From a virus, in the IMG/VR virus record IMGVR_UViG_3300047094_002183, positions 2,286 to 66,285 of that record: DNA of 64,000 bases. One strand, written 5' to 3'. Within the stretch, counting starts at the first letter, position 1, and each line of letters starts with the position of its first letter. Below the pieces are notes generated by a model that was not told the DNA's origin, did not search any database, and saw only the letters and a list, made by a program, of their open reading frames with translations. The translations under genes were made by a program, and so were the position numbers. This document shows, piece after piece, positions 3,456 to 19,870 of the stretch.

Positions 3456-3466
3456 GCTTGTCCTTG

Positions 3467-3811
3467 TTATTGGGTATATCGCATTCGTTCTGGGAGCAGG
3501 CCGTCAATGATATTGCCGAGCCGCGTTGCCGCAAGACCGTAGATCACGAGTTTTATCGCGCCGCCCAGAATACCGCCTACCCAGTTCCCTGCCAAGAGCA
3601 GCAAAAACAGGTAGATAGGTATGTGATATGACTTGCAAAATGGACATCCAATCCATTCGAGCACGTAGCCTTTAAGCGTGTTGTGCGGCGTGACGTCCTG
3701 CAATGCTTGAGTGTAGGCGCGCATCAACGCAAAAATTGAACCCTTATGCCACACCTCGATGACCGCGCCAGCTGCAAATACAACAGCAAAAAAGTCAAAG
3801 TATGAAATCAT
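3467..3811 (-). CDS. membrane protein with a CxxC motif (DUF1360-like)
   Basis: Start re-called at ATG 3811 (ATGA overlap with the upstream stop). Hydrophobic segments flank WIGCPFCKSYH. Confidence 0.6.
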   Translation of the reverse strand: MISYFDFFAVVFAAGAVIEVWHKGSIFALMRAYTQALQDVTPHNTLKGYVLEWIGCPFCKSYHIPIYLFLLLLAGNWVGGILGGAIKLVIYGLAATRLGNIIDGLLPERMRYTQ

Positions 3812-4035
3812 GGCAGCTCTTTTCTTTTCCTTCTGCGGGCTTGTTTGAGTTTTTGTGCGGCTTCTTGTTCGCCTTGCCGAAACCCGGACATAGCAGCAGA
3901 CATACAATAGATCACAAAACCGACAACAATAAAGCCGCTGATGCCCATAGCGCGATAATTAACGGCAGCGCTAACTAATAACGCAGCGGCAATACTCATG
4001 AAAACAGTATGCGTTACGTTGAATTCGGGAGACAT
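3808..4035 (-). CDS. small membrane protein
   Basis: Two hydrophobic helices and a basic C-terminal tail. Confidence 0.6.
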   Translation of the reverse strand: MSPEFNVTHTVFMSIAAALLVSAAVNYRAMGISGFIVVGFVIYCMSAAMSGFRQGEQEAAQKLKQARRRKRKELP

Positions 4036-4041
4036 TAAATG

Positions 4042-4269
4042 TCATTCTGCGTACTGATCGCCAAATGGCCATACGCGCGTTCTACCCGTATCTGCCGGTG
4101 TGCAGCTTTGTTGTGTAGTTTGCGCGTCGGCGTACGGCGGTTCGAGGTTTAAATGGTTAACTGCGTTATCCGGTAGATAAACGCGGGGACCCGGACCACG
4201 CAATGTGCTCTGGAAAATTGGTTGTCGGCGTTCTTGATACAGTTTTGCTGATCGGCCAATCTGTGGCAT
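4042..4269 (-). CDS. hypothetical protein
   Basis: AAGGAG Shine-Dalgarno before ATG 4269; 75 aa. Confidence 0.55.
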   Translation of the reverse strand: MPQIGRSAKLYQERRQPIFQSTLRGPGPRVYLPDNAVNHLNLEPPYADAQTTQQSCTPADTGRTRVWPFGDQYAE

Positions 4270-4333
4270 AATTTGCTCCTTAAACTGCAGCGGCTCACCG
4301 TCTAGTATACCGTTGCAGTTGCGTGGGTTGTAG

Positions 4334-4660
4334 TTACTGTGGCGGCAACGCCTTCACAGTGATATACGGCAGCCGCTTTTGCTTCGCGCGAATTGCGGTG
4401 CGGGGCTGCGGGGGCAACACAAATACCGTAATCTGTTGCGGTATTTCTTTGGGCCGTTGTTTTGTTTTGTTGAACAAAGTGACAACCCCCACACACGCAA
4501 GCCAAAGACTGTAGGCGATTTCACACAGGCCGCATACAATCATTTGGACGTACAGCACCGCAAATTGGCCTAGAATGCCGCAGCTATCTTCCACCCATTG
4601 CAGTTCCGGCTCATTGGCTTCTGAATATACGCGATTTCTCGCGTGTCTATATTTACGCAT
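4334..4660 (-). CDS. hypothetical membrane-associated protein
   Basis: ATG at 4660-4658 (MRKYRHAR..., 108 aa) with a central hydrophobic stretch; abuts the terminase ATG (CATATG). Confidence 0.45.
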   Translation of the reverse strand: MRKYRHARNRVYSEANEPELQWVEDSCGILGQFAVLYVQMIVCGLCEIAYSLWLACVGVVTLFNKTKQRPKEIPQQITVFVLPPQPRTAIRAKQKRLPYITVKALPPQ

Positions 4661-6592
4661 ATGGCACCAAAAATAGTGCGAGGTAAGTCCTCGCTGGATA
4701 AAAAGCAGGCGCTTGATATACCGACAGCCGGTATTCAAGCTCTTATCGACGATCTTCTGTCAATCGACGCGACTGATCAAGCGTCTGTACACGCTAAAGC
4801 AGCCGTCATGCGGGAGTTGGCGGGGCGGCACGCGTTCCCGTCCCTTGAACCATTACTTCCGCTTGTACTGAATCTTAATGGTCGCCCGTACACTATTAAG
4901 GACCATTTCGCTTTTTCGCCTTTATTCCGCGTCTTGACACCGAAAAACCAAGTGTGGTGCACCGGGCGTCAGGTATCAAAATCGACATCGCTCGCGGCGC
5001 ATGGCGTAGTGTTCGCCAACTCTGTGCCGTTTTTCAAAACATTGTATATCACTCCTCGGTTTGAGCAGGTGCGAAGGTTTAGTAACAACTACGTACGTCC
5101 GTTTATTGACCTGTCTCCGATTAAATCGCAGTGGAGCGGTACAAGTACGGAGAATTCTGTATTGCAGCGTTCGTTCAAGAACAACTCAATGATGTTGTTC
5201 AGTTTCGCGCTGCTCGATGCCGATAGAGTCCGCGGTGTGTCTGCTGACCGCGTGTGCATCGACGAGGTTCAGGACATGGACCCAGACCATGTACCTATCA
5301 TTCAAGAAACAATGTCGTATAGTCGCTGGGGCACTAGTTATTACACGGGCACGCCGAAGACCCTCGACAACTTAATTTACGGATTATACAAGCGCTCATC
5401 GCAAGCCGAATGGTTTATACCTTGTGATTCATGCAAGCACTGGAACATCCCAGCGCTTGAGCATGATCTTGACGCCATGATCGGCGACTACAGCATTCAT
5501 ATCAGCGAGAAGCACCCGGGCACTGTCTGCGCGAAATGCCGCAAGCCGATCAACCCGCGGCACGGGCGATGGGTGCATAGATACCCCGAGCGCCGCTGGC
5601 AGTTTGCTGGCTACCACGTTCCGCAGATTATTCTGCCGTTGCACTTTGCCGACCCGGAAAAGTGGTCGACTTTGTTATTAAAACGGGAGGGGTATGGCAA
5701 CATGACCCAAGCCCAGTTCTACAACGAAGTCATGGGCGAAAGCGTTGACACCGGGCAGAAGCTCATCAGCGAAACGGATTTGAAGGCTGCGTGTGTGCTG
5801 GACTGGGAAAACAAGAAAGAACCCGATCCCAAGTGCTACAAAAACTTGGCAGACTACAAGCACCGCATTCTAGCCATTGACTGGGGCGGCGGCGGCGAAG
5901 CTGGTATTAGCTTCACTGTGCTCACCGCAATGGGTTTCCGCCCAGACGGCACAATCGACGTGCTGTGGTCCAAGCGGCTACTTATCGGCGGCGATCACTT
6001 GGCCGAAGCCGTGGAGTGCATGAAGTGGTCGAACTTCTTCAAGTGCGACTTCGTGACGCATGACTACACAGGCGCCGGCACTGTCCGTGAGACAGTAATG
6101 GTTCAAGCCGGGTTTAATCTTGACCGCGTCATGGCAATGCGGCTTGTTCGGTCGGCGGCGCAGGATCTGCTGGTGTACAAACCGCCGACCGAGATTAATC
6201 ACCGCGCCCATTACAGTATCGACAAGACTAGATCGCTGCTGTACACCTGCCAAGCTATCAAACTGAAACAAGTCCGGTTTTTTCAGTACGACTGGGCGTC
6301 GCAGGATATGCCGGGTTTAATCTCTGACTTCTTGGCGCTTGTCGAAAACAAAGCGGACTCCCGAACCAGTAGTGATATTTATACCATTACCCGGAACACG
6401 CTTCTCACCGACGACTTTGCACAGGCCGTGAATCTTGGCTGCGCTGCGCTCTGGCACATCAATGACGCGTGGCCCAACTTTGCCGCTATTGCCGGCGTAG
6501 CGCGGATTACGCCACGACAGGCTGCCGCGGAGCGCATCGACGATGACGACTGGGCCGATGACGCAATTAGCGGCCGGTATATGGGCTACTAG
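4661..6592 (+). CDS. terL: terminase large subunit (GpA-like)
   Basis: Walker A-like GRQVSKST, Walker B VCIDEVQD, coupling motif GTPK, CxxC...CxxC zinc module and RNase H-like LAIDWGG...DDFAQA. Start at ATG 4661 preferred over GTG 4643. Confidence 0.9.
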   Translation: MAPKIVRGKSSLDKKQALDIPTAGIQALIDDLLSIDATDQASVHAKAAVMRELAGRHAFPSLEPLLPLVLNLNGRPYTIKDHFAFSPLFRVLTPKNQVWCTGRQVSKSTSLAAHGVVFANSVPFFKTLYITPRFEQVRRFSNNYVRPFIDLSPIKSQWSGTSTENSVLQRSFKNNSMMLFSFALLDADRVRGVSADRVCIDEVQDMDPDHVPIIQETMSYSRWGTSYYTGTPKTLDNLIYGLYKRSSQAEWFIPCDSCKHWNIPALEHDLDAMIGDYSIHISEKHPGTVCAKCRKPINPRHGRWVHRYPERRWQFAGYHVPQIILPLHFADPEKWSTLLLKREGYGNMTQAQFYNEVMGESVDTGQKLISETDLKAACVLDWENKKEPDPKCYKNLADYKHRILAIDWGGGGEAGISFTVLTAMGFRPDGTIDVLWSKRLLIGGDHLAEAVECMKWSNFFKCDFVTHDYTGAGTVRETVMVQAGFNLDRVMAMRLVRSAAQDLLVYKPPTEINHRAHYSIDKTRSLLYTCQAIKLKQVRFFQYDWASQDMPGLISDFLALVENKADSRTSSDIYTITRNTLLTDDFAQAVNLGCAALWHINDAWPNFAAIAGVARITPRQAAAERIDDDDWADDAISGRYMGY

Positions 6593-6915
6593 TAGATCCG
6601 CCAGCAGTAGTTGCGCAGATATTCTTTTACTATCGCAATGTCGCGAATTGGCGTGGCTTCGATATTCCGCACCACGACTAACGCAGCGTCGTGCATGGCA
6701 TTTGCAGCTTCTGTGCAATCCATACTACTGGTGTATAGATCCCAGCCAGCGCCTGTTCTCGGAATTGCTGGGCCTTTACCGTGTACGGCGGCATCCAGCA
6801 AGCTTTGAAATACGCCATCTGGTTCTGTGTCATTTGCGCCGAACGAACGATACTTGCTTTGGATTTGCTCAAACTCTTTAATCCACGCTTTAATCGCCTC
6901 CAGCGGTACCACCAT
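6589..6915 (-). CDS. hypothetical protein
   Basis: Start re-called at ATG 6915 (108 aa); its stop shares CTAG with the terminase stop. Confidence 0.55.
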   Translation of the reverse strand: MVVPLEAIKAWIKEFEQIQSKYRSFGANDTEPDGVFQSLLDAAVHGKGPAIPRTGAGWDLYTSSMDCTEAANAMHDAALVVVRNIEATPIRDIAIVKEYLRNYCWRIY

Positions 6916-7333
6916 CTCTGCCGATTTCGTCGAGGAGTTTTCCAAGATTTTTGCCCTTTTCTGTGATCGAGAACGCAAATGCGCCCTTATCGATGTCGAA
7001 TTCAGCGTCAAGCAAACCGCGCTTTACGCCGGCGTGCAGTACATTTGACATAATGCGCTCGCCAAGCGCGTGCATCATTTTCAGCATCTTCTGTTTGTAC
7101 TCAGTTTCGGTGTCGGCGCCGATTCCGAATTCATGCTCTGTAACAATATTACAGTGCTCTTTGATGATGTTAATTGTTTCTTGCGTAGATAAAAACTCTT
7201 TCATGTGCTCGGTCATTTGCGGCAGTTTTTCCTCGCACATTTTTTCAAGAAATCGGTGAAAGCCGTGCAGTGCCAGATTTCGGACTTCTTCTACGCCTGT
7301 ATGCGTGTGGTGCGTGTCATTGTCGTCAAGCAT
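6890..7333 (-). CDS. hypothetical protein
   Basis: 147-aa ORF with an AGGAG Shine-Dalgarno; the C-terminus is winged-helix-like (GLLDAEF...FSITEKGK). Confidence 0.65.
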   Translation of the reverse strand: MLDDNDTHHTHTGVEEVRNLALHGFHRFLEKMCEEKLPQMTEHMKEFLSTQETINIIKEHCNIVTEHEFGIGADTETEYKQKMLKMMHALGERIMSNVLHAGVKRGLLDAEFDIDKGAFAFSITEKGKNLGKLLDEIGRDGGTAGGD

Positions 7334-7640
7334 TGATGTTCTCCTGCAAACGGGCGGCAGCGACAGCAGCGTCGTAGCGACCCTTGGCCAGAATACGGTC
7401 GCGGGCGGCGTGCCGCAACTTGGTGAGGTGCGCGGCGTAGCTATCGTCGGTGTGGACCAGCGCTTCGGCGCTGGAAAAGCTGTGCGGCTTCCCGGTCAGC
7501 TTGTTGTCGCCGCTGCCCATGATGTACTCGATGGCGTTCAGCTTGACGACGTGCCGGTTGTCTTCCAGCTCCATTTCGTGGACGACGGCGTCGGCCAGTG
7601 TGACAGCGGCTTGTTCGATCTTGTTTGCGTAATTACTCAT
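7326..7640 (-). CDS. hypothetical helical protein
   Basis: 104-aa ATG ORF coupled by overlaps to both neighbours. Confidence 0.65.
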   Translation of the reverse strand: MSNYANKIEQAAVTLADAVVHEMELEDNRHVVKLNAIEYIMGSGDNKLTGKPHSFSSAEALVHTDDSYAAHLTKLRHAARDRILAKGRYDAAVAAARLQENINA

Positions 7641-7924
7641 TGGTCTTCTTCCTTATCGTATTTGTTAGCTAGTGCTTCAACAACTTGTTCTATATCGGAA
7701 ATCGCCGTGTCAAAGCGGCGGATTACTTCATCGGGATTGGCGGACTCGTCTGCCGCTTCAAATAACAAAAAAGCGAACAGCGTGTCACCACAATCGAGAA
7801 TGCCTTCGCGCCCACCCATGCGTTCTTTGTAGGCGGCAAACGTTTCGTTTTCTTCTGGCGGAAACAGTGCCAATAGGTCCGACCCGGGATACGCGTCATA
7901 GATATCTTTAGGCGTGACGGTCAT
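7637..7924 (-). CDS. small hypothetical protein, paralogous to the N-terminus of 8727-10361
   Basis: IYDAYPGSDLL...ETFAAYKERMGG...GDTLFAFLLFE aligns by eye with the N-terminal ~95 aa of the cadherin-like protein. Confidence 0.7.
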   Translation of the reverse strand: MTVTPKDIYDAYPGSDLLALFPPEENETFAAYKERMGGREGILDCGDTLFAFLLFEAADESANPDEVIRRFDTAISDIEQVVEALANKYDKEEDQ

Positions 7925-8652
7925 TCAGCGCATACTCCTCCCACGAGCCATTGTTCGCCGTGGTCAACTGTCTTTGTAGCGTAGAGCTTCTCTGCGAGCT
8001 TTTCGTCTAAAGTCCGCAACTTCTGTGCCGCTATGTCCGCGGCAGCTCGCAGCCCGTGGCGCTGAAAGCCGCAAACCTTTAGCGACTTCAGCATCTCGTT
8101 TGTGATTCGCTCTTTTGTGGCGCCAATCACAGCCAGCGAATCGCGAAATGTGTTTTCTGCCGTACGCGCCGCGTCGTGTTTTGCGCGCCACGTGTCGTAG
8201 ACCTTGGCGAATCGTGCGCGTTGTGCCGGCGTGAGCTGGTCGGCAATAAGCATTCGGCGCGTGTAGTCTGGCGCAGCGAGTACGCTAATTGCGCAACGCA
8301 GGCCGTACGTACAATCAGACGCGTCGGTGATGATGACAGCGCAGTTGTATTCTTTGCTCGGCTTGCCTTGAAACGTCGGCTCTTTCGTCTTCTCTTCGCG
8401 GCGATCTTTGTACTTGACCGCGACCGCGTTGCCCCATTTCTCGCAGACACCGTCGAGATAGTCGTCTGCTTCGCGTTGTGTCTCAAACACGCGGTTACCG
8501 ACCGTGATTCCGTGCAGCGTTGAGAAGGTGCCGTTGTAGGCGTTGCTGCCGTATTCGTCGCGCAGTGACTCGACACGCGCGTTATATGCTTTCTCTAATT
8601 CTTTCGGTGTTAGCTTTCCGTCAAAAACTTCGGTGTGAAAACACGCGCCCAT
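7921..8652 (-). CDS. hypothetical protein
   Basis: 243 aa, GGAG Shine-Dalgarno; the N-terminal MGA....EYG...YNGT and terminal W.VGG.CAE motifs resemble a phage family. Confidence 0.7.
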   Translation of the reverse strand: MGACFHTEVFDGKLTPKELEKAYNARVESLRDEYGSNAYNGTFSTLHGITVGNRVFETQREADDYLDGVCEKWGNAVAVKYKDRREEKTKEPTFQGKPSKEYNCAVIITDASDCTYGLRCAISVLAAPDYTRRMLIADQLTPAQRARFAKVYDTWRAKHDAARTAENTFRDSLAVIGATKERITNEMLKSLKVCGFQRHGLRAAADIAAQKLRTLDEKLAEKLYATKTVDHGEQWLVGGVCAE

Positions 8653-8726
8653 TGTTACTCCGGGGTGGTGAGGTCATTATTGGCCTGTTGTTTTTTGCGC
8701 GGCGCGGTAGGCCGATCACGCATAGA

Positions 8727-10361
8727 TCACGGGGATAAATCAGGCGCCACGTCAATCGTGATCGTGTTCGCGGTGGCAGAAAGGTCTGCGCCGGTGCTCT
8801 CTGTGCCGCCGTCGTCTTGCACTCGGAACGTGAAATGCGAGTAATTCATAATGGTTTCGAGAGGCGTATAAATCAACCGCGCCAGATCGCCGGCTGGGAT
8901 TAGATCGCCGACGGCTACGGGCACGTTGTCCAGTGTAAGTGTCCCCGTTGCTGGCAACGCTGTAATTGTTACTGTGAGCGGATCTGTTAGCGCGCCGTTA
9001 TTGGGTAATTGGAACGTAAACCCGGCAAAATTTTCTGTTTCGTATTGCGCGTTGTACTTTAACGATGCAATTTCCGCTGCTAAAATTGTTTGATTGCTTA
9101 CGACGGGTACGTTGTTGTGCGTCAACAATCCTGTCGCGGGCAATGTTACAATTTTTACGGCTATAAAATTGTTTGGCGGACTGTCATTGCCGTCTGCAAA
9201 TTCGAAATCGGCGGCTGTAAAAGCATAATCCCGGGTTTTTGACACGGTTATTGTTCTATTCGCGCTGGTCGGCGCGTCGTTTACGCTGACTACATCCAAC
9301 GTCAGCGTGTTTACGGTAGGCGAAATACTTACGCCGTCGTTTTCCGTACCGCCGTCGTCTTGCACTCGAAACGTAAAATTTGCGTAATTCAATCCGTAAG
9401 CGTTTGCTGCCGGCACGAACACAAATTTATTAGCTACGATATCATTGGCCGTAATTATTTGCGGAACGACAATAGCGCTGTTGTCGAGTTTTAATTCGCC
9501 GCTGCCAGCAGTCGTCAAAATTGTTACGAGCAAAAGGTTGTTTGGCGGATTGTCGTTTACATCTGTTAACCCAAAATCGCTAATTTTAAACGTATAGCTG
9601 CTGTCTTCTAGCAGCGTAATAGTTTTATCTGTTCCTGTCGGCGCGTCATTTACTGGCGTTACGTCAAACGTTATTCTGTTTGGCGTGTCGTCGATGTCAC
9701 TTCCGCCGCGGGCTAAGACGTCGGGGTCTAGCCCCTGAAAACCGTCGTCTTGCACTTGGAACAGGAAGCTTGCGTAGTTTACGCCGTTTGCGTTTAAAGC
9801 CGGCCGGAATACCAATGAAGAAATACTGTTTGCCGGAATAAAATCGCCGGCAACAACGGCGACATTGTTGAAACGCAATGTACCTGCGGCAGGCAACGTT
9901 GTGATTTTTACAGCAAAAAATGTATTTGGCGGCGCGTCATCTGGGTCTGTGAAACCAAAGTCGCTGGCGCTGAATATGTAATCGCTGTCTTCTTGTATTG
10001 CGATAACCGCATTTGTTCCCGATGGCGGATGGTTGATTGGCGGGCAGATCGGTCCATTCGGGAATTTGCGTAGTAACTTGATACGCACCTGCGTTAGATT
10101 TCGCATTGCGCGATCGAGCAGGCGGACAGCTGTGCGGCCGTCGCCGCCGGCACTTGACAGTTTAAAGATCAAAAAAGCAAACAGTATGTCGCCATTGTGC
10201 AGAATGTTTTCGCCGCCTACACGGGCAATATAAGTTGCAAATTGTTCGTCGCCGACTGGCGCGGGCAATAAAATCGGATTTCCGCCGTCCGGCAGCAAGT
10301 CAAGACCCGCGACGTACCACGTATAAATTTCACCGACAGTAAACTGCTGGATAATAGGCAT
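8727..10361 (-). CDS. cadherin-like/Ig-like repeat protein with a distinct N-terminal domain
   Basis: About three repeats with EDS.Y.F...DF, ITTLPA.G.L, F.F.VQDDG and V..VNDAPT motifs. Confidence 0.8.
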   Translation of the reverse strand: MPIIQQFTVGEIYTWYVAGLDLLPDGGNPILLPAPVGDEQFATYIARVGGENILHNGDILFAFLIFKLSSAGGDGRTAVRLLDRAMRNLTQVRIKLLRKFPNGPICPPINHPPSGTNAVIAIQEDSDYIFSASDFGFTDPDDAPPNTFFAVKITTLPAAGTLRFNNVAVVAGDFIPANSISSLVFRPALNANGVNYASFLFQVQDDGFQGLDPDVLARGGSDIDDTPNRITFDVTPVNDAPTGTDKTITLLEDSSYTFKISDFGLTDVNDNPPNNLLLVTILTTAGSGELKLDNSAIVVPQIITANDIVANKFVFVPAANAYGLNYANFTFRVQDDGGTENDGVSISPTVNTLTLDVVSVNDAPTSANRTITVSKTRDYAFTAADFEFADGNDSPPNNFIAVKIVTLPATGLLTHNNVPVVSNQTILAAEIASLKYNAQYETENFAGFTFQLPNNGALTDPLTVTITALPATGTLTLDNVPVAVGDLIPAGDLARLIYTPLETIMNYSHFTFRVQDDGGTESTGADLSATANTITIDVAPDLSP

Positions 10362-10405
10362 TATGTATCACATACTCCACCGGCACATGTTTTTGCCGCG
10401 CCGGG

Positions 10406-10657
10406 TTATTCGCACTCTGTGTTATTAAAATCCTGATTGACCTGTTGTTCTTGCCGCGTTAGTTTGCGCTTGGGAAACTTGTCAGAGTGGCATACATAGC
10501 AGCGGCTCTGGCGGCAGCCCGAACAGCGCCACGTTTTACGGAAGCGGCCTACGTCTGGAACGAACTTGTCGTTCTGCGGGCCAAGATAGCCGCCGAGCTG
10601 TTTATACATCTTTACGCGATGTTCAATGATATGCTTTTCTTCGTGGTAACGCTGCAT
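10406..10657 (-). CDS. hypothetical Cys-rich basic protein
   Basis: 83 aa with CSGC...CYVCH, a possible zinc site. Confidence 0.6.
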   Translation of the reverse strand: MQRYHEEKHIIEHRVKMYKQLGGYLGPQNDKFVPDVGRFRKTWRCSGCRQSRCYVCHSDKFPKRKLTRQEQQVNQDFNNTECE

Positions 10658-11100
10658 TAGGTGACCTCACAAAGTAAGACGGTTTTACATCCGCATTGTT
10701 TGGCAATGTTTACGACATTCGTTGCGTAAACCGATACGGGGTTTTCGCGTTTTAGGGCGCCGGCGGTAATCAGCGCCTGTAGGCCCAGTCGCGCAAACCC
10801 ACGACTCCGCAGTTCTGGGTCGACAAAGCATTCTATGGTTTGTGCCGTAATTGTCTCGCCCTTGAATTTTTCGGGCCATGGGCGGGTGCCGACCCAGCCC
10901 GCGAGCATGCCGTTGCACCAGACAAGCGCGATGGCCATTTCGGGGTGCGGGCCCGGCGTGGGCGTGACGTAGCGTTTTTCCAGCTCTTTTTGAATCGAGC
11001 TGTCGCTTTTGGAGTCCGGCCACGACAGGCGCGTATAGATAGCCGAAACGTCGATGGTCCCGAGCTTATTGATATCTTTGACGATAATCCGAAAATCCAT
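10657..11100 (-). CDS. GNAT-family acetyltransferase-like protein
   Basis: Start re-called at ATG 11100 (GGAGG Shine-Dalgarno; the longer ORF would overlap the tRNA). Motif A: FVDPELRSRGFARL. Confidence 0.7.
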   Translation of the reverse strand: MDFRIIVKDINKLGTIDVSAIYTRLSWPDSKSDSSIQKELEKRYVTPTPGPHPEMAIALVWCNGMLAGWVGTRPWPEKFKGETITAQTIECFVDPELRSRGFARLGLQALITAGALKRENPVSVYATNVVNIAKQCGCKTVLLCEVT

Positions 11101-11136
11101 GGCAAGTCCTCCGCGACTTACCACAAATTTTAACAA

Positions 11137-11209
11137 AGCCAGTGGCCGGGAACGATCCGGCGACATTTTGTTTACAAAACAAACGCTCTACCAACTGAGC
11201 TACACTGGC
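11137..11209 (-). tRNA. tRNA-Thr(UGU), CCA not encoded
   Basis: Cloverleaf: GCCAGTG/CACTGGC acceptor, GCTC/GAGC D stem, TTTGT/ACAAA anticodon stem with loop TT-TGT-AA, and GCCGG/CCGGC T stem with loop ATCGTTC. Confidence 0.9.
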
Positions 11210-11216
11210 AGTCTTT

Positions 11217-11678
11217 TTACGTGAGCGCTGCAGCCTCCGGCCAATAGTATGGCAGATCTACAGGTTCTTGCCAGCCAAATTTTGAGTAGTACGCGTAGTC
11301 TTTACGCAGCAGGTTGCTTCTGTGCGATGCGTGAAATCTGCGGCTGCCGATCCACGGCGGATAGTGATTGTGTACCACGAGCGGTCGCAACCGCGCATAC
11401 GCTGCCATGAATTCCGGGTGCAGGTTGTCGTTGAAGCCGCGTGAAATCCACTCACGGCAAATGACGGCGGCGTATACGACTAACGCCAGCTCGTGCCCGG
11501 TCCACATTTTTACGGCCGGATGATTGCGCCAGCGAGATACGTAGGGCTCGTGTTGTCCGATGCCCACGCCAAGCGCTAATAAGATTTGTTTACATTCGAC
11601 TCGTTGTTTACCCAACCTTTTGTTATCAAGACAGCGCGCCGACTTGCGAAAGCTGGCGTGCGGTAAAAACGTTTGCAT
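11217..11678 (-). CDS. pyrimidine-dimer DNA glycosylase / MSMEG_6728-like protein
   Basis: MQTFLP, LDNKRLGKQRVEC.QIL, WRNHPAVKMW and FHASHRSNLLRKD motifs. Confidence 0.85.
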   Translation of the reverse strand: MQTFLPHASFRKSARCLDNKRLGKQRVECKQILLALGVGIGQHEPYVSRWRNHPAVKMWTGHELALVVYAAVICREWISRGFNDNLHPEFMAAYARLRPLVVHNHYPPWIGSRRFHASHRSNLLRKDYAYYSKFGWQEPVDLPYYWPEAAALT

Positions 11679-11686
11679 AGCTCCTT

Positions 11687-12001
11687 CTATTCGTCATCGG
11701 TGTACTCGTCGTCATCTGCGTCATAATCGTCTTCGTAAGCCGCGTCGTCATCATCGTCTAGTGCGTCATCGTCTTCGACATCGTCGACCCATTCTTCTGC
11801 TTCTTCAAACATTTCGTCGTCGTCGTCATCGATGTAGAAATTTACTTTTGGTTTAACCTCAGTAATATTGCTGTCATCATCATCGTCATTGTTGTCGTCA
11901 ACGAAATGCCACTCTTCTTCGATAAAATCATCATCGAGACCGTCGTCGTGACGACTGTGGACGTTTTTACACGTTAACGACAGAGCCGATGATTGATGCA
12001 T
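11687..12001 (-). CDS. highly acidic low-complexity protein
   Basis: 104-aa ORF dominated by D/E, filling the gap between two genes. Confidence 0.5.
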   Translation of the reverse strand: MHQSSALSLTCKNVHSRHDDGLDDDFIEEEWHFVDDNNDDDDDSNITEVKPKVNFYIDDDDDEMFEEAEEWVDDVEDDDALDDDDDAAYEDDYDADDDEYTDDE

Positions 12002-12002
12002 G

Positions 12003-14627
12003 TTAGCCTATCTCGCGCACAATGGAGTTAGTATTTCGCCAAAACTGATCACACCAAGCTGTATTTACAAGAATTCCGTTTGCACCGTGTATGACTTCTT
12101 CGCCGGCAAAGAGGCCGGCGGCGAGTAATAAGTCTACAATTATTAGCCAATTTGGGGCAGTGGTACGTTCGGTATAAAAATAACGGTCAATTGCGCGTTG
12201 GTTTAGCCACCAGTTATCTTTGCGCCGGAGCACGTAATTTTGAGGCTGATCTTTGCGTCTTGGCCGCGGCAAAACCGCCAATTTTTCGGCCTGTATTGCG
12301 GTATTTAGCTCGGTTAACAAGGCAACATGCGCCAGTTCTGGCGTGAGCAGCTGATTCTGGGCGCACGACAGCTGAAATGACGCTTCATATGTCTGCGTCA
12401 GCCACTCGTGCAGATCGCGAATAACGGCGCGCGTAAATGACTCGTCTTGGGCGGCGAGCCGCATTCTGTTGCGCAAAGACCGTTGGATGTACGCCGGTAG
12501 AATGTGCTGGAATACAGAGAAATCGGTGTTAGCCGGCGGCGCCGTGCCCTGAATGATCTGCCAGTTATATCCCGGCGCTACAGCAGCGGACATCGCCGTC
12601 AGGCGCGACAGCAGCGGGCGATTATGGCATTTCACGATAGATGAGTTGAACGTGGCGTCATTGAACTCGCTGGACGCAAACAGCGGCCAGTCTAACTCGT
12701 GTGTAGAATCAGTCAGTTGTTTGCTGACGTGGTTTTTTTGCATCATCGACAAGCGCAGGTGCCGGCAGCCAAGCGCCCCGCCAAGTTTGGCCGCGACAGC
12801 GAAATTTTCTCCGATAATACCTGTCGCAATGTTATCTTTACGCAATATGGGCGCCAGCAGATTTGTGGCCACGGCAGCGACCACATTCCAGACAAATGCG
12901 TTTTCGTAACTGGGCGTTAAAAACTGTCTGATAGCTGGAGGACCCACAAGGGTTGGTCGCGGAAAAATGATCCTATTTTTTCTCGTGACGCCAGCCGTTG
13001 TGTCTGTCGCGCAACCAAAACTGTCGATAGCGTAATCGGCAAATCTGAATACGGAGTTGCGGTCATCCCACCCCATGCGACTAGAGACAACCACCAGCTC
13101 TGGTTGATGCAGCTGTATAGCAAGCAAATGACTGCGACGATTCCATGCTCGGTCAAATACGATGAGTTTTCCGCTCGATGCAGCTGTCGCGGCGGCATAC
13201 GCTAGCAGGCCCATGTTTTCAATAGTTTGCGCGCTGTCTACGAAATCTATAGCAATGTCGTCGACGTATATTTTGCCGACATAGCTTCTGTCACCTGTAT
13301 CCGACTGCACAATTTTTTCAATAACAACACGCGCAGAACAGACTTGATGCCCGATGTGGTTCCACCAGCCATTTTCTTTTTCTATGACAATCCAGCGCCG
13401 GTGGGCTTTGGTTGGCGCCGCAGGCGTGACAGACACAGAGTTAAGTACGCGCGTCACAAAACCGGGTGAAAATTGCGTATCCGTTTTTTTAAAAAACAGG
13501 TTCAACTTTTCGTGCGGCACCAGCAACCGCGAGGCGAACGAATACGCGGCGACTTCGCTCATGCCGTGTAATGTGTGTTGTAAGCTCGTTTGCCACGTTT
13601 CCGCGTGTTTATGAATGTTGGCGAGTTGCTCTAAGATCGGGTTGGGGCTTTTTGTTTTATGCGTGAGAGGCGTAACGCAGACATACCCTTTGGCTGCGCA
13701 CGCGCGACTGATTAACTCTGGCGTAATTGCGCTGCCATGAAACAACCGCGGGATAACCGGAAACGCCTGCCAACTTGTGCCGTAACTGTTCGCCTCTGTG
13801 CCGTTATAGCTGGACATAATAGGCAGAAGGTTTAAGCCGCGCTTTAATTGTGTGCACTGCGCGCTGAGCGCCCAAAACGGGTCGTCAACAATGAATTGTG
13901 CGCCGCGGAGTGCTGTAGGGGCGGCACGCAACGCGCTATGCAGTAAAAAATAACCGGCGTCGGGGCGTTGCCGACGATATCCGGTTGTTGGCACAAACGT
14001 TGACTTGGACGTGAAATCATCGGCGTATTGCACAAGTAAGACGCCGGTAAGACGGCCGGGCAGATCGTAAAACGGGAATACAAGCGTTGCGCCGTTTTCT
14101 CGTAATTTTGTCGGTTTTGCCCTGCCCAGAGCTGCGCATAGTTTTACTACCTGATCTTTGTGCGCAACGCCGACAAGCCCGGACGCATTGATCTCGTGAT
14201 ATACGCCCAATTCGCGCAATCGGCACGCGATAACGTCGTCGCCGTGATTCCATATTTGTGCCTCGGCGTCGAACCAAAAGCTCTCGATGGCGTGCTGCCG
14301 ACTAAGCGTACGTTCGTAATCGCCGGCTAAATGGTCTTTTTCGCCTTGATTTACCAGTCCCAGCTCGGCAAATTTCTTTAACGTGCTGGGCAGGCTTGTA
14401 TTCCATATCGCCGCTCCAAACGTTATGATATCTCCATGGGCGGCGCACGCATTACAGTGCAGCCATATGCCGTCCGTAATGGTGTCGTCAAACAAATGTA
14501 ACGTGTTTTGTTGACATAACGGACAGGAAACCACCGCCGGGAAAGATGGATTTTCCGGTGCCACGCCTAAAGCCGACAAGGCGTTTATGTGGTGATGTCG
14601 GCGGACTAAACAGGTAGGCAATCCCAT
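12003..14627 (-). CDS. large primase-related protein (N-terminal zinc finger, degenerate catalytic motifs)
   Basis: CPLC...HCNAC zinc motif with GDIITF, and LVFPFYDLPGRLTG resembling the DnaG core; 874 aa. Confidence 0.55.
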   Translation of the reverse strand: MGLPTCLVRRHHHINALSALGVAPENPSFPAVVSCPLCQQNTLHLFDDTITDGIWLHCNACAAHGDIITFGAAIWNTSLPSTLKKFAELGLVNQGEKDHLAGDYERTLSRQHAIESFWFDAEAQIWNHGDDVIACRLRELGVYHEINASGLVGVAHKDQVVKLCAALGRAKPTKLRENGATLVFPFYDLPGRLTGVLLVQYADDFTSKSTFVPTTGYRRQRPDAGYFLLHSALRAAPTALRGAQFIVDDPFWALSAQCTQLKRGLNLLPIMSSYNGTEANSYGTSWQAFPVIPRLFHGSAITPELISRACAAKGYVCVTPLTHKTKSPNPILEQLANIHKHAETWQTSLQHTLHGMSEVAAYSFASRLLVPHEKLNLFFKKTDTQFSPGFVTRVLNSVSVTPAAPTKAHRRWIVIEKENGWWNHIGHQVCSARVVIEKIVQSDTGDRSYVGKIYVDDIAIDFVDSAQTIENMGLLAYAAATAASSGKLIVFDRAWNRRSHLLAIQLHQPELVVVSSRMGWDDRNSVFRFADYAIDSFGCATDTTAGVTRKNRIIFPRPTLVGPPAIRQFLTPSYENAFVWNVVAAVATNLLAPILRKDNIATGIIGENFAVAAKLGGALGCRHLRLSMMQKNHVSKQLTDSTHELDWPLFASSEFNDATFNSSIVKCHNRPLLSRLTAMSAAVAPGYNWQIIQGTAPPANTDFSVFQHILPAYIQRSLRNRMRLAAQDESFTRAVIRDLHEWLTQTYEASFQLSCAQNQLLTPELAHVALLTELNTAIQAEKLAVLPRPRRKDQPQNYVLRRKDNWWLNQRAIDRYFYTERTTAPNWLIIVDLLLAAGLFAGEEVIHGANGILVNTAWCDQFWRNTNSIVREIG

Positions 14628-15798
14628 GACAGATATCCCGCTCGATCAGGCACACGACGTCAGTGGTCGCGAGACACACCGGTTAACAACCCTGCACCCG
14701 AGCCCCGATTTCGTCAAGGCGGCATCGCAGGATCGGCTGCAAGGCGACGAAACCCTGCCGCGCCATCTGTACGCTGATCAGAACAATAAACTTTACCCGT
14801 GCCATACTGCGGCTGCAACATGGATGTCTGCGTTGTTTTTCAACGACAAGCAGGCCCAGTTTAACAAAGTTGCTTCGGAATACATTCGTACACGCATCCA
14901 GCTAGCCGCCGAGTATTTCGGTATTGCCGGGCTGGTGGGCGATCTGGAAGAGAAGATGGCAGCCGAAGTTGGTCAGACTTTAGACCAGCTGCCTGATTCT
15001 GAGTTTGCCATTGTCTGGGGTAGCGACACGGGCAAAGAACGCCACTGGCCCCTGCGCAACGCCAACGAGGTCAAGTTCGCCGCGGCTAGCTTTAAGCAGT
15101 ACCGGGACGAGTTTGTGTTTGACGACCGGCACACGATTGCGAACAAGATCCTCGAAAAAGCTGCGCAGTACGGCGCCGACGTGAGTGACGCCGGCGGCAC
15201 GCTGGAACTGGCCGCGGGCCAAGGTGCCTGCGCCGCCAAGGTTGCCAGCCAAATGCTCAAAGACCGCGTACGGCTTACCGCCCGCCAGCACGGCGATCTG
15301 GCGGCTGAGTTGTCCAAGTTGGCCGAGATTGTCGACCAGAACCCGGAAAAAGCCCGGGAGGTCGATACTCGACTGAAGTTGGCGAGCGCGGTCGATAATT
15401 TTGATAAGAATACCGGCCTGTATCGGCTGTACGACGCCGGCGGGCTGGCCCGGCCTGAAGAAGTCCTGTTCGCGATCACCGAGAAGGTGGCGCGTGACTT
15501 CCTTGATCAGAACGTTGAGACGACCACGGGTAACGTGTACGCGCTTGACGATCTGGAGAAGCTGGCCGTGGAAGACGTCCGCGAGTGGCTGGGCGACGAC
15601 TTTGCCGACGCTGTCAGCGCCGGCGGCGTTTACATGGACCGCGACAAGCTGGCCGAGATTGTGCCCACGCTTGATCGTGGCATGGCGTCCACGCTTGACC
15701 GACTTATGTCGGAGAAGACCGCCGGCGCTGTCGTGAAGTCGGCGTCGTTTGAAGGGCTGCTGCCGCTGGCCAAGCTCCATGAGCTGGCGAACGGTTAG
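14626..15798 (+). CDS. hypothetical protein with recurrent K-x-A motifs (candidate processed head/internal protein)
   Basis: 390-aa ORF with natural composition; 14 of 22 lysines are in K-x-A. Confidence 0.8.
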   Translation: MTDIPLDQAHDVSGRETHRLTTLHPSPDFVKAASQDRLQGDETLPRHLYADQNNKLYPCHTAAATWMSALFFNDKQAQFNKVASEYIRTRIQLAAEYFGIAGLVGDLEEKMAAEVGQTLDQLPDSEFAIVWGSDTGKERHWPLRNANEVKFAAASFKQYRDEFVFDDRHTIANKILEKAAQYGADVSDAGGTLELAAGQGACAAKVASQMLKDRVRLTARQHGDLAAELSKLAEIVDQNPEKAREVDTRLKLASAVDNFDKNTGLYRLYDAGGLARPEEVLFAITEKVARDFLDQNVETTTGNVYALDDLEKLAVEDVREWLGDDFADAVSAGGVYMDRDKLAEIVPTLDRGMASTLDRLMSEKTAGAVVKSASFEGLLPLAKLHELANG

Positions 15799-15980
15799 TC
15801 ATCATCGTCGCTGTCCGGGCCCATGTCTTTCAGGTCGTCGATGACCTGCCAGCCAAGTTCTACACTGCGGTCTTCAACATGCTTGCGGCTAGCGCCGGCA
15901 AGCTCTTCTGGCGTCCAGATAATAACTGCGTAACCGCGACTTCGCAGTTCCGCAACGACTTCTTTTTCTTCTGGCGTCAT
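15795..15980 (-). CDS. small hypothetical protein
   Basis: 61 aa, ATGA-coupled to the upstream gene; LR..GYAV..WTPEEL.G motif. Confidence 0.65.
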   Translation of the reverse strand: MTPEEKEVVAELRSRGYAVIIWTPEELAGASRKHVEDRSVELGWQVIDDLKDMGPDSDDDD

Positions 15981-16396
15981 TGCTTTGGCCCTCTAACAAA
16001 CTTCGCTAGACAACGTTCTAGCGTTTCGCGTATTACAGTTCCGCGCTCGGGTTCGTTTTCTGGCAACGTTACAAGAGCGCCCGGATCAATATTTTGAGAC
16101 GTCAGCGTTTGCCCCGTTTGCCCCGTCAAGGTTACAAAATCTTCCATGGCTTCTTTGATATAACTGTTCATCAGCGCGCGCAAATATTCGCGATCTTTGA
16201 GCGCAAAATTATTCTCGGCCATAACTGTCTCTGCCGCAATTGCGTACGCTACAACTTTTACAAGCCAGTTTTTAGCGTCAGATACAGCCGAACGATTGTC
16301 TTCGACATACTCTGCCCACGCGTCGTAATCGTCTCTGTCTTGCTGTGATTCATATGGAATATTCGGGTCTTCAGGGAGTCTGTCGTTCCACCCCAT
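15977..16396 (-). CDS. hypothetical protein
   Basis: 139-aa ATG ORF in a packed run. Confidence 0.6.
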   Translation of the reverse strand: MGWNDRLPEDPNIPYESQQDRDDYDAWAEYVEDNRSAVSDAKNWLVKVVAYAIAAETVMAENNFALKDREYLRALMNSYIKEAMEDFVTLTGQTGQTLTSQNIDPGALVTLPENEPERGTVIRETLERCLAKFVRGPKQ

Positions 16397-16571
16397 GCTT
16401 GCGTTGCTTTCTTTGTTCGGCGGCGACTACTTCACCGCGCAGGATTGATACGGCCTCCGGTGCCGTAAAGCCGAGCTTCACACGATCTCCGCAGATTTCG
16501 AGAACCCGCACTACGACAATCCGGTCGCCAATGATGATCTCTTCTTCCTTCTTCCGAGATAGCACCAACAC
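16371..16571 (-). CDS. csrA: carbon storage regulator CsrA/RsmA homolog
   Basis: MLVLSRK.EE.IIIGD.I...V....GDRVKLGF.AP..V.ILR.E; GTG start with a GAGG Shine-Dalgarno. Confidence 0.9.
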   Translation of the reverse strand: MLVLSRKKEEEIIIGDRIVVVRVLEICGDRVKLGFTAPEAVSILRGEVVAAEQRKQRKHGVERQTP

Positions 16572-16595
16572 GACAACCTCTTTTCAGCGTTACCG

Positions 16596-17264
16596 CTATT
16601 TGTGAACATTTTGCAGCATTTCAACGACATGCTGCGTGCTGCCATTTTTTAAATGCAGCGCGGCCATTTGCTCTGCTAACAACTTGGTCTTTATTCGAAT
16701 GGTGTTATTGATATCTTCTGTCTTGCCTGTTTCGAGGTCGTAGACAGCGTTAAACATTTCCGGGTCGTCCGAGAAGTCCGTGATGTTTTTCGATACGCGA
16801 TTTGTGCGCAGAGCAATCCGCAGGATATCGGGCGGATTAATAATGCCCTCGCTGTCCAGCACGGCACCGATGTACCCGCGGATCTCGTCTGTAAACGGTT
16901 CCGGGTCTTTTTCGTCCGGCGGTTCGATCAGCAGGGCCTCGGTAATACCCCATGCGATTTCTTCAGCGTCGGCCGGGTCCCACATATCCGGGCGGTATGT
17001 GTCATCGCCCAGCACGTTGCAGAACGAGATGAAGTCTGGCAGATTCTTGAAGAACCGGTCGGTGGTCAGGATCTGAATGCAGACGATAAGCTTATCTAGC
17101 GAACTCTGGCTCAGCTTGACGTTGAACTCTTCTTCGATCTCCAGCGCAATAGTCGCCGGGTCCCATTCCAGCCCCTCCATGCCGAAGCGGTCAAGAAACA
17201 ACGTCAGAAGCACGCTGCCAAATGTTTCCCGACTCGTCCACGCTATTTGCATTAGGTTTGACAT
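16596..17264 (-). CDS. conserved hypothetical phage protein
   Basis: 222-aa ORF with globular composition (EWDP.TI..EIEE.F motif). Confidence 0.75.
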   Translation of the reverse strand: MSNLMQIAWTSRETFGSVLLTLFLDRFGMEGLEWDPATIALEIEEEFNVKLSQSSLDKLIVCIQILTTDRFFKNLPDFISFCNVLGDDTYRPDMWDPADAEEIAWGITEALLIEPPDEKDPEPFTDEIRGYIGAVLDSEGIINPPDILRIALRTNRVSKNITDFSDDPEMFNAVYDLETGKTEDINNTIRIKTKLLAEQMAALHLKNGSTQHVVEMLQNVHK

Positions 17265-17712
17265 GCATCCCTGCTCTTTTCTCGATCTGCAGTACGCCCC
17301 GGCGGTACAGCTCTCCTAGATTATACGCAATCGTCTCCATGGGAGGATGCGGAAGTGTCGTAACCTGTTCGCCCGTTTGGAGATCGGTAAAACCCGTGTG
17401 GCCGGTCCACGTGCAATATCGGTTATCGGCAAACACAAGCTGCTTTAGGCACGTGTCGCAACTGCCGTCAAACAGCGGCGCGATGTTTGCGAGGATGAGT
17501 GCCCGCTGTTCCGGCTGCAGGAACCCCAGCCGATGCAGCATGTCCGCAGCGAGCAGGATAAAAATAACATTAACCGGCAGCGGGTCGGTTTCAGCCGGCA
17601 ACTCCGCGCTGAGAATGGTGTTAAAAATAGACCGGATTTGTAGCTTGCTTAACTCTACAACGCGCATTACCATATTCAGCGTAAGGCTCTTTTTTTCACC
17701 GGAGGTTTCCAT
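17191..17712 (-). CDS. hypothetical protein
   Basis: Start re-called at ATG 17712 (alternative 17721); the upstream extension is antisense to a + strand gene. Confidence 0.6.
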   Translation of the reverse strand: METSGEKKSLTLNMVMRVVELSKLQIRSIFNTILSAELPAETDPLPVNVIFILLAADMLHRLGFLQPEQRALILANIAPLFDGSCDTCLKQLVFADNRYCTWTGHTGFTDLQTGEQVTTLPHPPMETIAYNLGELYRRGVLQIEKRAGMHVKPNANSVDESGNIWQRASDVVS

Positions 17713-17986
17713 GGTTTCCATCGTCGACTCGCTTTCTAACGTCTCTACGGGCCGGGCTGAATTTGTGGTCAGCGGTAATGGTATCGAAGAACTCATGGCG
17801 GCTGCAACGTCAAATATGGTTCTGCAGAAGGCGGCCGAGCTTGGACTGAACCGACCCGGTGTTTCCAACGCTAGCGGTCCGTACCCTGTTGACGAGAACG
17901 GCAAGACTGACGATGAGCTTATGATGGGCAAGCGTGGGCCGGTCGCCGGTTATCAGCGCGACTTTGTCATTTTAGCGTCGCTCTAG
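17711..17986 (+). CDS. hypothetical protein (91 aa)
   Basis: GGAGG at 17701-17705, 5 nt before ATG 17711; MVSIVDSLS...YQRDFVILASL reads as a globular protein. Confidence 0.7.
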   Translation: MVSIVDSLSNVSTGRAEFVVSGNGIEELMAAATSNMVLQKAAELGLNRPGVSNASGPYPVDENGKTDDELMMGKRGPVAGYQRDFVILASL

Positions 17987-18310
17987 TCCGTAATGGTCGT
18001 CTTTGCGGTCGACCCAAAGAACGGCTACCGGTTTGCCTTTTTCGAACTGAACAACGGAAAAACAAACTGGTGTCGTGCAGTCGATTTCAAGTTTGGCAGT
18101 GACCGCCTGTCCGGCGCGAAGGCTCATTTTTTTCGCAACCTTGAACGCCTCTTCACGGTCAGCGAACAGTCCGACCGGTACGTCGTCCATGGTGTGCCGC
18201 CAGATAACGAGATAACCGGTCATGCCGGACTTAGGGGCCGCGCTGCGTTTTTTACGCGGCGCGGTTTTCTTTTTGATAACGGTCTTTTTGGTTTTAGTTT
18301 TCATCGGCAT
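17972..18310 (-). CDS. hypothetical protein with a Lys-rich N-terminus
   Basis: 112-aa ATG ORF; basic tail followed by a small beta/alpha domain. Confidence 0.6.
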   Translation of the reverse strand: MPMKTKTKKTVIKKKTAPRKKRSAAPKSGMTGYLVIWRHTMDDVPVGLFADREEAFKVAKKMSLRAGQAVTAKLEIDCTTPVCFSVVQFEKGKPVAVLWVDRKDDHYGLERR

Positions 18311-18471
18311 CGCTTTCTATTACGTCCGGGACTTCGGTTATTTTGGTAAACGCGGTTACTCTGACGCTTTCTGTGGGCTCAAGATCGAGCAGCTCTGCCC
18401 ACTTCCAATACTGCGGCGGATCAATGGCCCCGCTGCATATGATTTCTAACGTAATCGTTTGTTTTCGCATG

Positions 18472-18939
18472 CTATTCCTCTAGTCCAAATGTGTCGATGT
18501 GGGCGAGCCGGGCAGAATAGAACTCTGCAACATTTCCGGCAACGGCAGTAAAACGTTTCACGATTTCGGGCACAATCTTGGTTGTGAACACGGTCAAGAT
18601 TGTTTTCTGATACTTAGCTAGCGCCTCTGGCGTGTAATTAGCGCGCCGCACTTTTTCCGCGCCTTTTCTGATGTCGGGGTCGCTGTCCAGCATGAGTTGC
18701 ACAAACGCCGGGTTTATGAACTCGATGATGTGCCCGTAAACTTGTTTGACTTCATACGGGACGGGGACTTCAAACATACATGCGCCGGGCCACACGTCAT
18801 CAGGTTTGGAGTCTTTTGACGGATAGCGCAGCTTTCCAAGCGACCAACCAAACGCTGCGGCGTCGTCATTTGGCTCGGCCATGACGAACGGCGGCTTAGC
18901 CTTCTCTGGTTTTTTATCGAGTTTTAGTTTGCGTTTCAT
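18472..18939 (-). CDS. hypothetical protein
   Basis: 155-aa ATG ORF. Confidence 0.65.
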   Translation of the reverse strand: MKRKLKLDKKPEKAKPPFVMAEPNDDAAAFGWSLGKLRYPSKDSKPDDVWPGACMFEVPVPYEVKQVYGHIIEFINPAFVQLMLDSDPDIRKGAEKVRRANYTPEALAKYQKTILTVFTTKIVPEIVKRFTAVAGNVAEFYSARLAHIDTFGLEE

Positions 18940-18960
18940 TGATAGCTAAGGAAAATTGAA

Positions 18961-19041
18961 ATCACCGGCTGCACAACTGGGAATACACATTACCGTCGGG
19001 TTAGGACAGTAGATGTGTATCCCAGCTGCACAGCCAGTGAT
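18961..19041 (-). ncRNA. long intergenic RNA hairpin (putative cis-regulatory, processing or small RNA element)
   Basis: About 36-bp imperfect inverted repeat whose five substitution mismatches all become G-U pairs on the - strand. Confidence 0.6.
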
Positions 19042-19050
19042 ACGGATTGA

Positions 19051-19437: not shown

Positions 19438-19561
19438 GACTTTAAATCCCTCGCGAGGCACGGATGTTGACCCACTGATACAACACAGTAGCGTCAACTA
19501 ATATGCCGCGATATCGCGAGAAATTTAGCGGTTTCCAGTTTCCAGAAAATGGAACGCGACG

Positions 19562-19861: not shown

Positions 19862-19870
19862 AATACATCC

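Follow-up and report, generated by a model that had tools for sequence, protein, structure and literature searches.

Plus-strand genes set without intergenic DNA in the minus-strand gene array of a large phage, and candidate expression signals within their neighbours

In noncontiguous operons, as described in reports on Staphylococcus aureus and on the ith-1/tha-1 genes of phage 80alpha, a gene on the opposite strand is nested within an array of genes and has its own promoter; the array transcript is expected to be antisense to it, so that control between the two would be reciprocal (PMC11087260, PMC11034616). A related arrangement, the excludon, is presented as a pair of opposite-strand neighbours whose mRNAs overlap, with transcriptional interference or processing by RNase III as possible consequences (PMC12288877, PMC7154746). 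Here, a comparable layout is described for a 64-kb window, that is, the whole stretch of DNA analysed, out of a 66,285-bp virus record (IMG/VR record IMGVR_UViG_3300047094_002183). Three plus-strand genes, which encode the large subunit of a terminase and two proteins of 390 and 91 amino acids (aa), lie in an array of minus-strand genes, and no nucleotide separates any of them from its neighbour on either side.

Such junctions are uncommon when it is the starts of two genes that meet. In a survey of 58 species, 12,737 overlaps are co-directional, 1,890 are convergent and 331 are divergent (PMC2174442), and this rarest class of overlap in cellular genomes is described as often attributed to annotation error (PMC2174442, PMC2716372). 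A search of a limited collection of papers, supplements not included, found no report of conserved head-to-head sharing of start codons in phages. In addition, one of the three genes seems to lack the usual signals for ribosome binding, and in this respect the closest described case is the mRNA of lambda cI transcribed from P_RM, a leaderless phage mRNA according to the source consulted (PMC10491246).

The nested genes and their junctions

A crude gene call based on codon usage finds 70 genes in the whole contig, 67 of them on the minus strand, and places only three on the plus strand, at 4661-6592, 14626-15798 and 17711-17986. The first encodes the terminase large subunit, of 643 aa, which matches the GpA-type ATPase family PF05876 with 46.3 bits (curated cut-off 25.6) and phrog_675 with an E-value of 6.2e-57 over residues 72-603. 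The 390-aa product of the second has a mean column identity of 69% among 34 homologues. Its match to DUF6582 (PF20223) reaches 23.4 bits, which is under the gathering cut-off of 27.3, and the same match is found at E<=0.01 in 12 of the 34 family members; this is a lead only, and PHROGs, a PDB profile search and Atlas yielded nothing usable for this protein. The 91-aa protein, with a mean column identity of 80% among 29 homologues, is conserved through its last residue; it has no family match, and its Atlas matches are below chance level.

Searches with the terminase and with the 91-aa protein recovered 72 loci (in contigs of up to 205 kb) and 25 loci, respectively, from IMG/VR. In all recovered loci, the flanking homologues are opposite in strand to the terminase, and the three plus-strand genes keep the same order in the relatives. 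One of these, G003 (locus L014), is a complete genome of 203,206 bp with direct terminal repeats. It has 243 called genes, 234 of which are on the minus strand; its convincing plus-strand genes are the same three and one for a 109-aa thioredoxin-like protein, and five further plus-strand calls of 40-59 aa look spurious. The thioredoxin-like gene (134856-135185 of G003, plus strand; L104) encodes a signal-peptide-like N-terminus and a CxxC motif, and looks moron-like. It is proposed that the phage has a genome of roughly 200 kb, which would be transcribed almost entirely off one strand. L072, a distant locus for which the calls conflicted, was excluded.

When starts are taken from comparison with homologues, all six opposite-strand junctions of the window have a gap of zero or less. 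The crude caller had picked inner starts for two minus-strand partners, 4594 and 14579, and homologue alignment overruled both. At its 5' end, the terminase gene meets a minus-strand open reading frame (ORF) of 108 aa (4334-4660; hereafter, the small ORF) in the hexamer CATATG (4658-4663), with a gap of 0 nucleotides (nt). The 390-aa gene shares CATG (14625-14628) with a gene for an 874-aa protein (12003-14627), and the 91-aa gene shares CATG (17710-17713) with a gene for a 173-aa protein (17191-17721; 176 aa if started at 17721). At the tail-to-tail junctions, CTAG (6589-6592) is common to the terminase and a 140-aa gene (6589-7011; phrog_16722, E-value 7.1e-16), TTAG (15795-15798) is common to the 390-aa gene and a 61-aa gene (15795-15980), and the 91-aa gene overlaps by 15 nt (17972-17986) a 112-aa gene (17972-18310), the start of which is uncertain (18310, 18304 or 18223). 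All six junctions read as an earlier note on this DNA had described them. The re-called starts also hold, with one ambiguity at the 173-aa gene (see below), given the in-frame stops upstream of the terminase ATG, the open small ORF and the alignment of the 874-aa protein from residue 1. The palindromes at the junctions arise automatically from abutting or shared CAT/ATG and stop codons; they are no separate feature and need no special explanation.

The head-to-head pairs are conserved, and the arrangement is retained in relatives whose terminases have 52-61% identity. For the terminase and the small ORF, the sample consisted of the window and 43 loci; loci that were truncated or looked like duplicates, and the two most distant ones, had been left out (among others outside the sample are L041, L052, L053, L061, L062, L067 and L069). 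In 42 of these 44 sequences, the start of the small ORF lies in CATATG or CATG; in the other two, it is separated from the terminase by 4 and 12 nt. Because it is open in all 44, and carries a conserved E(P)E(L/F)QW(L/V)ED motif (EPELQWVED in the window) with a hydrophobic tail, the small ORF is taken as a real gene, as the earlier note had supposed. Its length in the relatives is 49-80+ aa, and it has no Pfam or PHROG match. Residues 1 to 10-25 are poorly conserved; nevertheless, in the CATG group, the 8-12 codons between the junction ATG and the motif contain no other start codon. On the other side of the junction, the terminase ATG is the sole possible start in several relatives, in which an in-frame stop lies 1-4 codons upstream.

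At the 874-aa/390-aa junction, CATG is found in 41 of 41 distinct loci. From residue 1 on, the 874-aa protein keeps the N-terminus M-G-x-P-T-C-L-x-x-R-x-H-H, and the sequences that encode it differ synonymously. This protein, called primase-like in the earlier note, has no Pfam or PHROG match. At the third pair, 18 of 28 distinct loci have CATG, 9 have TATG and one has AATG, and the ten loci without CATG have an in-frame CAT 9-15 nt deeper inside the 91-aa gene. Consequently, the overlap is of 2 nt or of 11-17 nt, and a gap is present in none of the 28. It is ambiguous whether the 173-aa gene starts at 17712, within CATG, or at another ATG, 17721; both are in use among the relatives, and neither leaves an intergenic base. 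A 9-nt tandem duplication at 17704-17721 (on the minus strand, ATGGAAACC twice) is the origin of these two in-frame ATGs (M-E-T-M-E-T), and it also supplies the first codons of the 91-aa gene.

Tail-to-tail neighbours behave differently from one locus to another. The window's own convergent partner abuts, with a gap of zero or less, in 18 of 45 loci for the terminase, in 3 of 41 for the 390-aa gene and in 13 of 29 for the 91-aa gene. The 61-aa gene, for instance, has a homologue in just 3 of 41 distinct loci, each time at -4. The remaining loci have a different convergent neighbour, often still at -4, -7 or 0.

Candidate signals embedded in neighbouring coding sequences

The terminase gene lacks a Shine-Dalgarno (SD) core (at least 4 nt, at -16 to -4) in 42 of 43 distinct upstream regions, which is what is looked for in a leaderless mRNA. 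By comparison, 185 of the 243 called genes of G003 have one, a count that the caller biases upward, and random positions have one in 14% of cases. In the window, the sequence TATATT (4648-4653, plus strand), which resembles a -10 box, lies 7 nt upstream of the terminase ATG, where codons 3-5 of the small ORF spell it on the opposite strand. A hexamer of this type (at least 4 of 6 matches, with A2 and T6) is found at -13 to -8 in 19 of the 44 sequences and at -11 to -6 in 10, with 0-5 of 44 at positions elsewhere; in 29 of 44 it ends 5-7 nt ahead of the terminase ATG. The codons that form it are constrained at the nucleotide level: Tyr4 of the small ORF is TAT in 21 sequences and TAC in 4, against a genome share of 36-40% for TAT, and the middle base of codon 3 is A in 41 of 42. 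A leaderless mRNA is suggested because this box ends 5-7 nt before an ATG that has no SD; the terminase mRNA would thus probably start at or next to its AUG. The reverse dependence is also observed, as codon 2 of the terminase ends in A in 27 of 27 sequences, though the residue that it encodes varies (A, S, P or T), and Pro comes next. As a result, (A/T)GGTG is formed on the minus strand, 4 nt before the ATG of the small ORF.

Within the terminase gene, about 45-85 nt past the ATG, a 17-pair hairpin (4704-4747, plus strand) is formed by the codons for ALDIPTAGIQAL and is kept in 37 distinct sequences. In these, 79.7% of cells are paired, as compared to 64.5% in shuffled alignments (none of 500 reaches the observed value) and to 29-41% when the partner is slid. 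Compensatory change is seen at eleven pairs, including the third bases of Ile/Val and Gly codons. The hairpin appears to belong to the terminase mRNA, because G-U cells outnumber A-C cells (66 against 25) and because, in 26 of 37 sequences, pairing is better on the plus strand; for the same reasons, it was rejected as a minus-strand terminator. RNAalifold predicted no structure on the longer alignments A1 and A5. A minus-strand TTGACA at the terminase codons for SID was likewise rejected as a promoter, since no -10 partner was found by eye on the alignment. In staphylococcal phages, structured RNA from terminase genes is reported to be sensed by the cyclase of the cyclic-oligonucleotide-based antiphage signalling system, CBASS (PMC10686824); for the hairpin described here, this is a lead and not a link.

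A second, short hairpin (4678-4694, minus strand) is formed at terminase codons 6-11 and is followed on the minus strand by ACTATTTTTGG; it was flagged as terminator-like. Its stem sequences differ among lineages. Ranked by stability within the gene, it reaches the top decile in 16 of 27 sequences when read as minus-strand RNA and in 5 of 27 when read as plus-strand RNA. No consistent plus-strand terminator was found downstream of the terminase in the relatives.

The 390-aa gene has an SD-like AGGTAGG (14612-14618, plus strand) 7 nt before its ATG, formed by codons 4-6 of the 874-aa gene and conserved among the relatives aligned. Here too, the codon choice is constrained, as Pro4 of the 874-aa gene is CCT in 29 of 29 sequences and CCT makes up only 10% of the Pro codons of G003. 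Two hairpins upstream of this gene were considered and dropped: 76.1% of cells are paired as compared to 73.8% in shuffles, 2 of 500 of which reach the observed value, and there is little covariation. Canonical plus-strand terminators lie 53-85 nt past the stop codon in 8 of 41 relatives. In G003 (L014), a plus-strand tRNA-Met (CAT) is found at 18399-18472, 10 nt past the stop of the 390-aa gene, on a strand that is otherwise almost empty.

The SD of the 91-aa gene, GGAGG (17701-17705, plus strand), lies 6-7 nt before the ATG, is provided by the T-S codons of the 173-aa gene, and is GGAGG in 25 of 28 loci and GGAG in the other 3. Deeper inside the 173-aa coding sequence, a candidate promoter, TTGCTT-N17-TACCAT, occupies 17645-17673 (plus strand); a -10-like hexamer upstream of this gene is found at -43 to -38 in 15 of 27 loci and at -46 to -41 in 9 of 27. 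In the 22 loci with the L-S-K-L-Q peptide, the codons that spell the candidate promoter are fixed, with Val as GTA in 21 of 21 (19% in the genome), Ser as AGC in 22 of 22 and Lys as AAG in 22 of 22. In a lineage whose peptide differs, TAGACT occupies the place of TACCAT. Synonymous sites of the 91-aa gene itself are saturated, with a third-base entropy mostly of 1-1.9 bits, so that synonymous bases which stay fixed elsewhere carry information, subject to the relatedness of the sequences compared.

Beyond the stop of the 91-aa gene, a strong predicted intrinsic terminator with a 15-pair stem followed by a T tract (18234-18278, plus strand) lies within the 112-aa gene or just upstream of its start. 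Within 400 nt past the stop, 22 of 24 distinct loci have a hairpin of -18 kcal/mol or lower with a T tract, with stems that differ by lineage; G003 has a background of 0.295 such terminators per kb, which amounts to about 0.12 per 400 nt. This threshold was used, together with the genome background, as one of -9 kcal/mol gave too many hits to be informative. The terminator is located about 200-330 nt beyond the stop, inside or after the convergent minus-strand gene. In the window, the Lys-rich first 29 residues of the 112-aa gene (18224-18310, minus strand) coincide with the terminator and its T tracts. The 112-aa gene may start instead at the internal ATG at 18223, which would place the terminator in a 70-nt non-coding gap.

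Proposed transcription of the nested genes and rival explanations

With moderate confidence, we favour the reading that the terminase, 390-aa and 91-aa genes are autonomous plus-strand units nested in the minus-strand array, with dual-coded signals and overlapping transcripts, in the layout of a noncontiguous operon. The three units would be antisense to an array as long as the genome, with no intergenic DNA left between them and it, and the expression signals of the plus-strand genes would be embedded in the coding sequence of the flanking minus-strand genes and vice versa. For the terminase, these signals would be a -10-type box (xATAxT) from codons 3-5 of the small ORF, a leaderless mRNA and then the conserved hairpin. 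For the 390-aa gene, an AGG(T/C)AGG SD would come from codons 4-6 of the 874-aa gene, and for the 91-aa gene, GGAGG would come from the T-S codons of the 173-aa gene, with its putative promoter deeper inside that gene and a terminator 200-330 nt past the stop. The minus-strand partners, in turn, would take SD-like GGTG/AGG motifs from codons 2-4 of the plus-strand genes, and a polycistronic minus-strand RNA would read through the 91-aa gene and probably through all three.

Overlap of sense and antisense transcripts at the 5' ends is very likely on this account, as the SDs of the 390-aa, 91-aa and small-ORF genes lie within the first codons of the partner, and mRNAs that contain them must be antisense to the partner's start region. 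The earlier note had claimed this for each 5' untranslated region of the junctions; it is supported for these three genes and probably fails for the terminase, the mRNA of which seems to be leaderless. The sequences themselves show the junctions, how well they are kept and the constraint on the nucleotides of the embedded motifs; where transcription would start, whether it would read through and what regulatory effect might follow, for instance transcriptional interference or the processing of double-stranded RNA, is inferred. On the minus strand, no strong terminator (-18 kcal/mol or lower) was found inside the three plus-strand genes of G003. Nor was any run of invariant synonymous sites, as an embedded minus-strand promoter would leave, found in the 91-aa gene or in codons 1-75 of the 390-aa gene; in codons 1-70 of the terminase, only the SD-forming codon 2 and isolated sites stand out. 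This lack of terminators and embedded promoters fits minus-strand read-through, albeit weakly.

Several observations weigh against this reading. As regards the promoters, candidates with fixed synonymous sites were found for the terminase and the 91-aa gene and none, within 110 nt, for the 390-aa gene. A generic sigma-70 scan of 3000-20000 is not enriched, with 10 sites as compared to 12.5 +/- 2.7 in shuffles, and it flagged none of the candidates. Moreover, 15 of the 44 sequences lack a -10-like hexamer before the terminase, and the CATATG group shows no convincing -35 there. The motifs also overlap conserved N-terminal residues (M-R-N-Y, M-V and S-K), so that their conservation is partly at the protein level, and the argument from codon choice counts related sequences as independent. 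At the tail-to-tail side, the convergent neighbours are poorly conserved, and many relatives end the 390-aa gene in ordinary non-coding DNA with a terminator. Finally, the short minus-strand hairpin with its U tract just before the small ORF could terminate or attenuate the minus-strand read-through at that junction and would then speak against an uninterrupted minus-strand operon there, a suggestive observation only.

One alternative is pure compaction: selection or drift would have made the genome dense, the zero gaps would follow from this, the embedded motifs would merely occupy the places left for signals, and the antisense overlap would have no regulatory use. Same-strand junctions are indeed tight too, with 20 nt or less in 40 of 63 cases in the contig and in 145 of 225 in G003, tail-to-tail neighbours have been freely replaced and still abut at -4, -7 or 0, and the palindromes need nothing but abutting codons. 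Nevertheless, the contig is dense yet not uniformly gapless, since only 15 of its 63 same-strand gaps are of zero or less, 25 are of 1-20 nt and 23 are longer, up to 427 nt. The thioredoxin-like plus-strand gene of G003 likewise retains ordinary gaps of 124 and 763 nt, whereas the three head-to-head pairs have been maintained over deep divergence and belong to a class of overlap that, by the survey cited above (331 against 12,737 co-directional), is strongly under-represented in cellular genomes. We regard compaction by itself as rather unlikely, if still a serious explanation.

A second alternative is that each unit is insulated: minus-strand transcripts would end before or at the end of each plus-strand gene and restart at embedded minus-strand promoters, in which case the overlap would be just SD-sized and long antisense RNA would not form. 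The short minus-strand hairpin and U-rich tract immediately before the small ORF agree with this idea, as does a candidate TATACT-type element in the 64-nt gap (4270-4333) before the next minus-strand gene. Against it are the lack of strong minus-strand terminators within the plus-strand genes of G003, the lack of fixed-synonymous blocks in the codons scanned and the bias of the long terminase hairpin towards the plus strand, and we consider it improbable. Less probable still, to the point of being very hard to sustain, is that the starts were mis-called or the partners are non-coding, so that true starts further in would leave ordinary promoter gaps. The inner starts favoured by the crude caller, the poorly conserved first residues of the small ORF and the two candidate ATGs of the 173-aa gene speak for such errors. 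They are countered by the small ORF, open in 44 of 44 sequences and with a conserved motif, by the CATG group's lack of any other start codon in the 8-12 codons before the motif and by an 874-aa N-terminus conserved from its first residue despite synonymous differences. As for the 173-aa gene, all of its alternative starts are deeper in the plus-strand gene and would only increase the overlap.

If the nested units are transcribed as favoured above, they might also act as a timing device. Transcription of the minus strand along the whole genome would repress the terminase, 390-aa and 91-aa genes until the embedded plus-strand promoters, once firing, throttled the minus-strand genes behind them, which would be those for a small membrane protein, a large replication-type protein and the 173-aa protein. 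The hairpin of a leaderless terminase mRNA would add a further control, and the whole would be a dual-coded switch without a regulator, present across the jumbo-phage clade. This extension is speculative, and we doubt that it will hold in full. The mutual exclusion suggested in the earlier note, between accessory or early genes and packaging or head genes, cannot be kept in that form, as the minus strand also carries tail-fibre, baseplate-wedge and sheath-like genes.

Other features of the window lie outside the junctions. Directly downstream of the 874-aa gene, a 104-aa ORF (11687-12001, minus strand) consists mostly of Asp/Glu runs and is thus extremely acidic. A tRNA-Thr (TGT) at 11137-11209 (minus strand), present in 6 of 9 scanned relatives, overlaps the 5' end of a long ORF call (10657-11166), the true start of which is probably further in. 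Several internal repeats of about 100 aa, in which NDAPT and FxFxVQDDG are among the motifs, make up part of a 544-aa protein (8727-10361, minus strand) that weakly matches a virion structural protein in PHROGs. In addition, a (T)GTATACT motif recurs in three minus-strand intergenic regions (4270-4333, 59517-59613 and 62766-62859), about 35-60 nt upstream of start codons with good SDs, and may be the -10 element of phage or host promoters.

Comparison with described systems

If the predicted transcripts exist, this clade would be an unusually clean natural example of regulatory information superimposed on coding information, with a -10 box, SDs, a terminator and an mRNA hairpin held inside ORFs over long evolution. 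It would also extend antisense nesting beyond accessory genes, to genes essential for packaging and morphogenesis in a large, lytic-type phage. The embedded motifs yield specific and directly testable predictions for transcription starts and 3' ends. For annotation, the consequence is more immediate: callers that penalise divergent overlaps or require an SD will mis-start such genes, as occurred at two of the three head-to-head junctions.

In lambda, P_RM and P_R are divergent back-to-back promoters in a non-coding operator region. The terminase described here resembles cI in that it has no SD, a putative mRNA that starts with AUG and a candidate promoter back to back with a divergent gene; unlike in lambda, the candidate -10 box would lie in codons 3-5 of the partner. 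The sharing of CTAG, TTAG, TTAA and CATG is akin to the short gene overlaps of prokaryotes, such as co-directional ATGA and the 4-nt convergent overlaps, in being the minimum that the codons permit. Here, however, three head-to-head pairs are found within 14 kb, and they are backed by alignment of homologues.

The likeness to excludons resides in divergent and convergent neighbours whose mRNAs, if made as predicted, must overlap. Excludons, however, are defined from transcriptomes and usually involve long untranslated regions over intergenic DNA, whereas the overlap proposed here is deduced from motif positions and falls wholly in coding sequence. The likeness to noncontiguous operons is that, in both cases, opposite-strand genes are nested in a co-directional array. 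Nevertheless, the nested genes are here core morphogenesis and packaging genes of a lytic-type jumbo phage and not accessory or immunity genes; intergenic DNA is absent, and the putative promoters, SDs and terminator would be dual-coded in the neighbouring ORFs. Moreover, and again unlike in noncontiguous operons, the arrangement is conserved throughout a clade.

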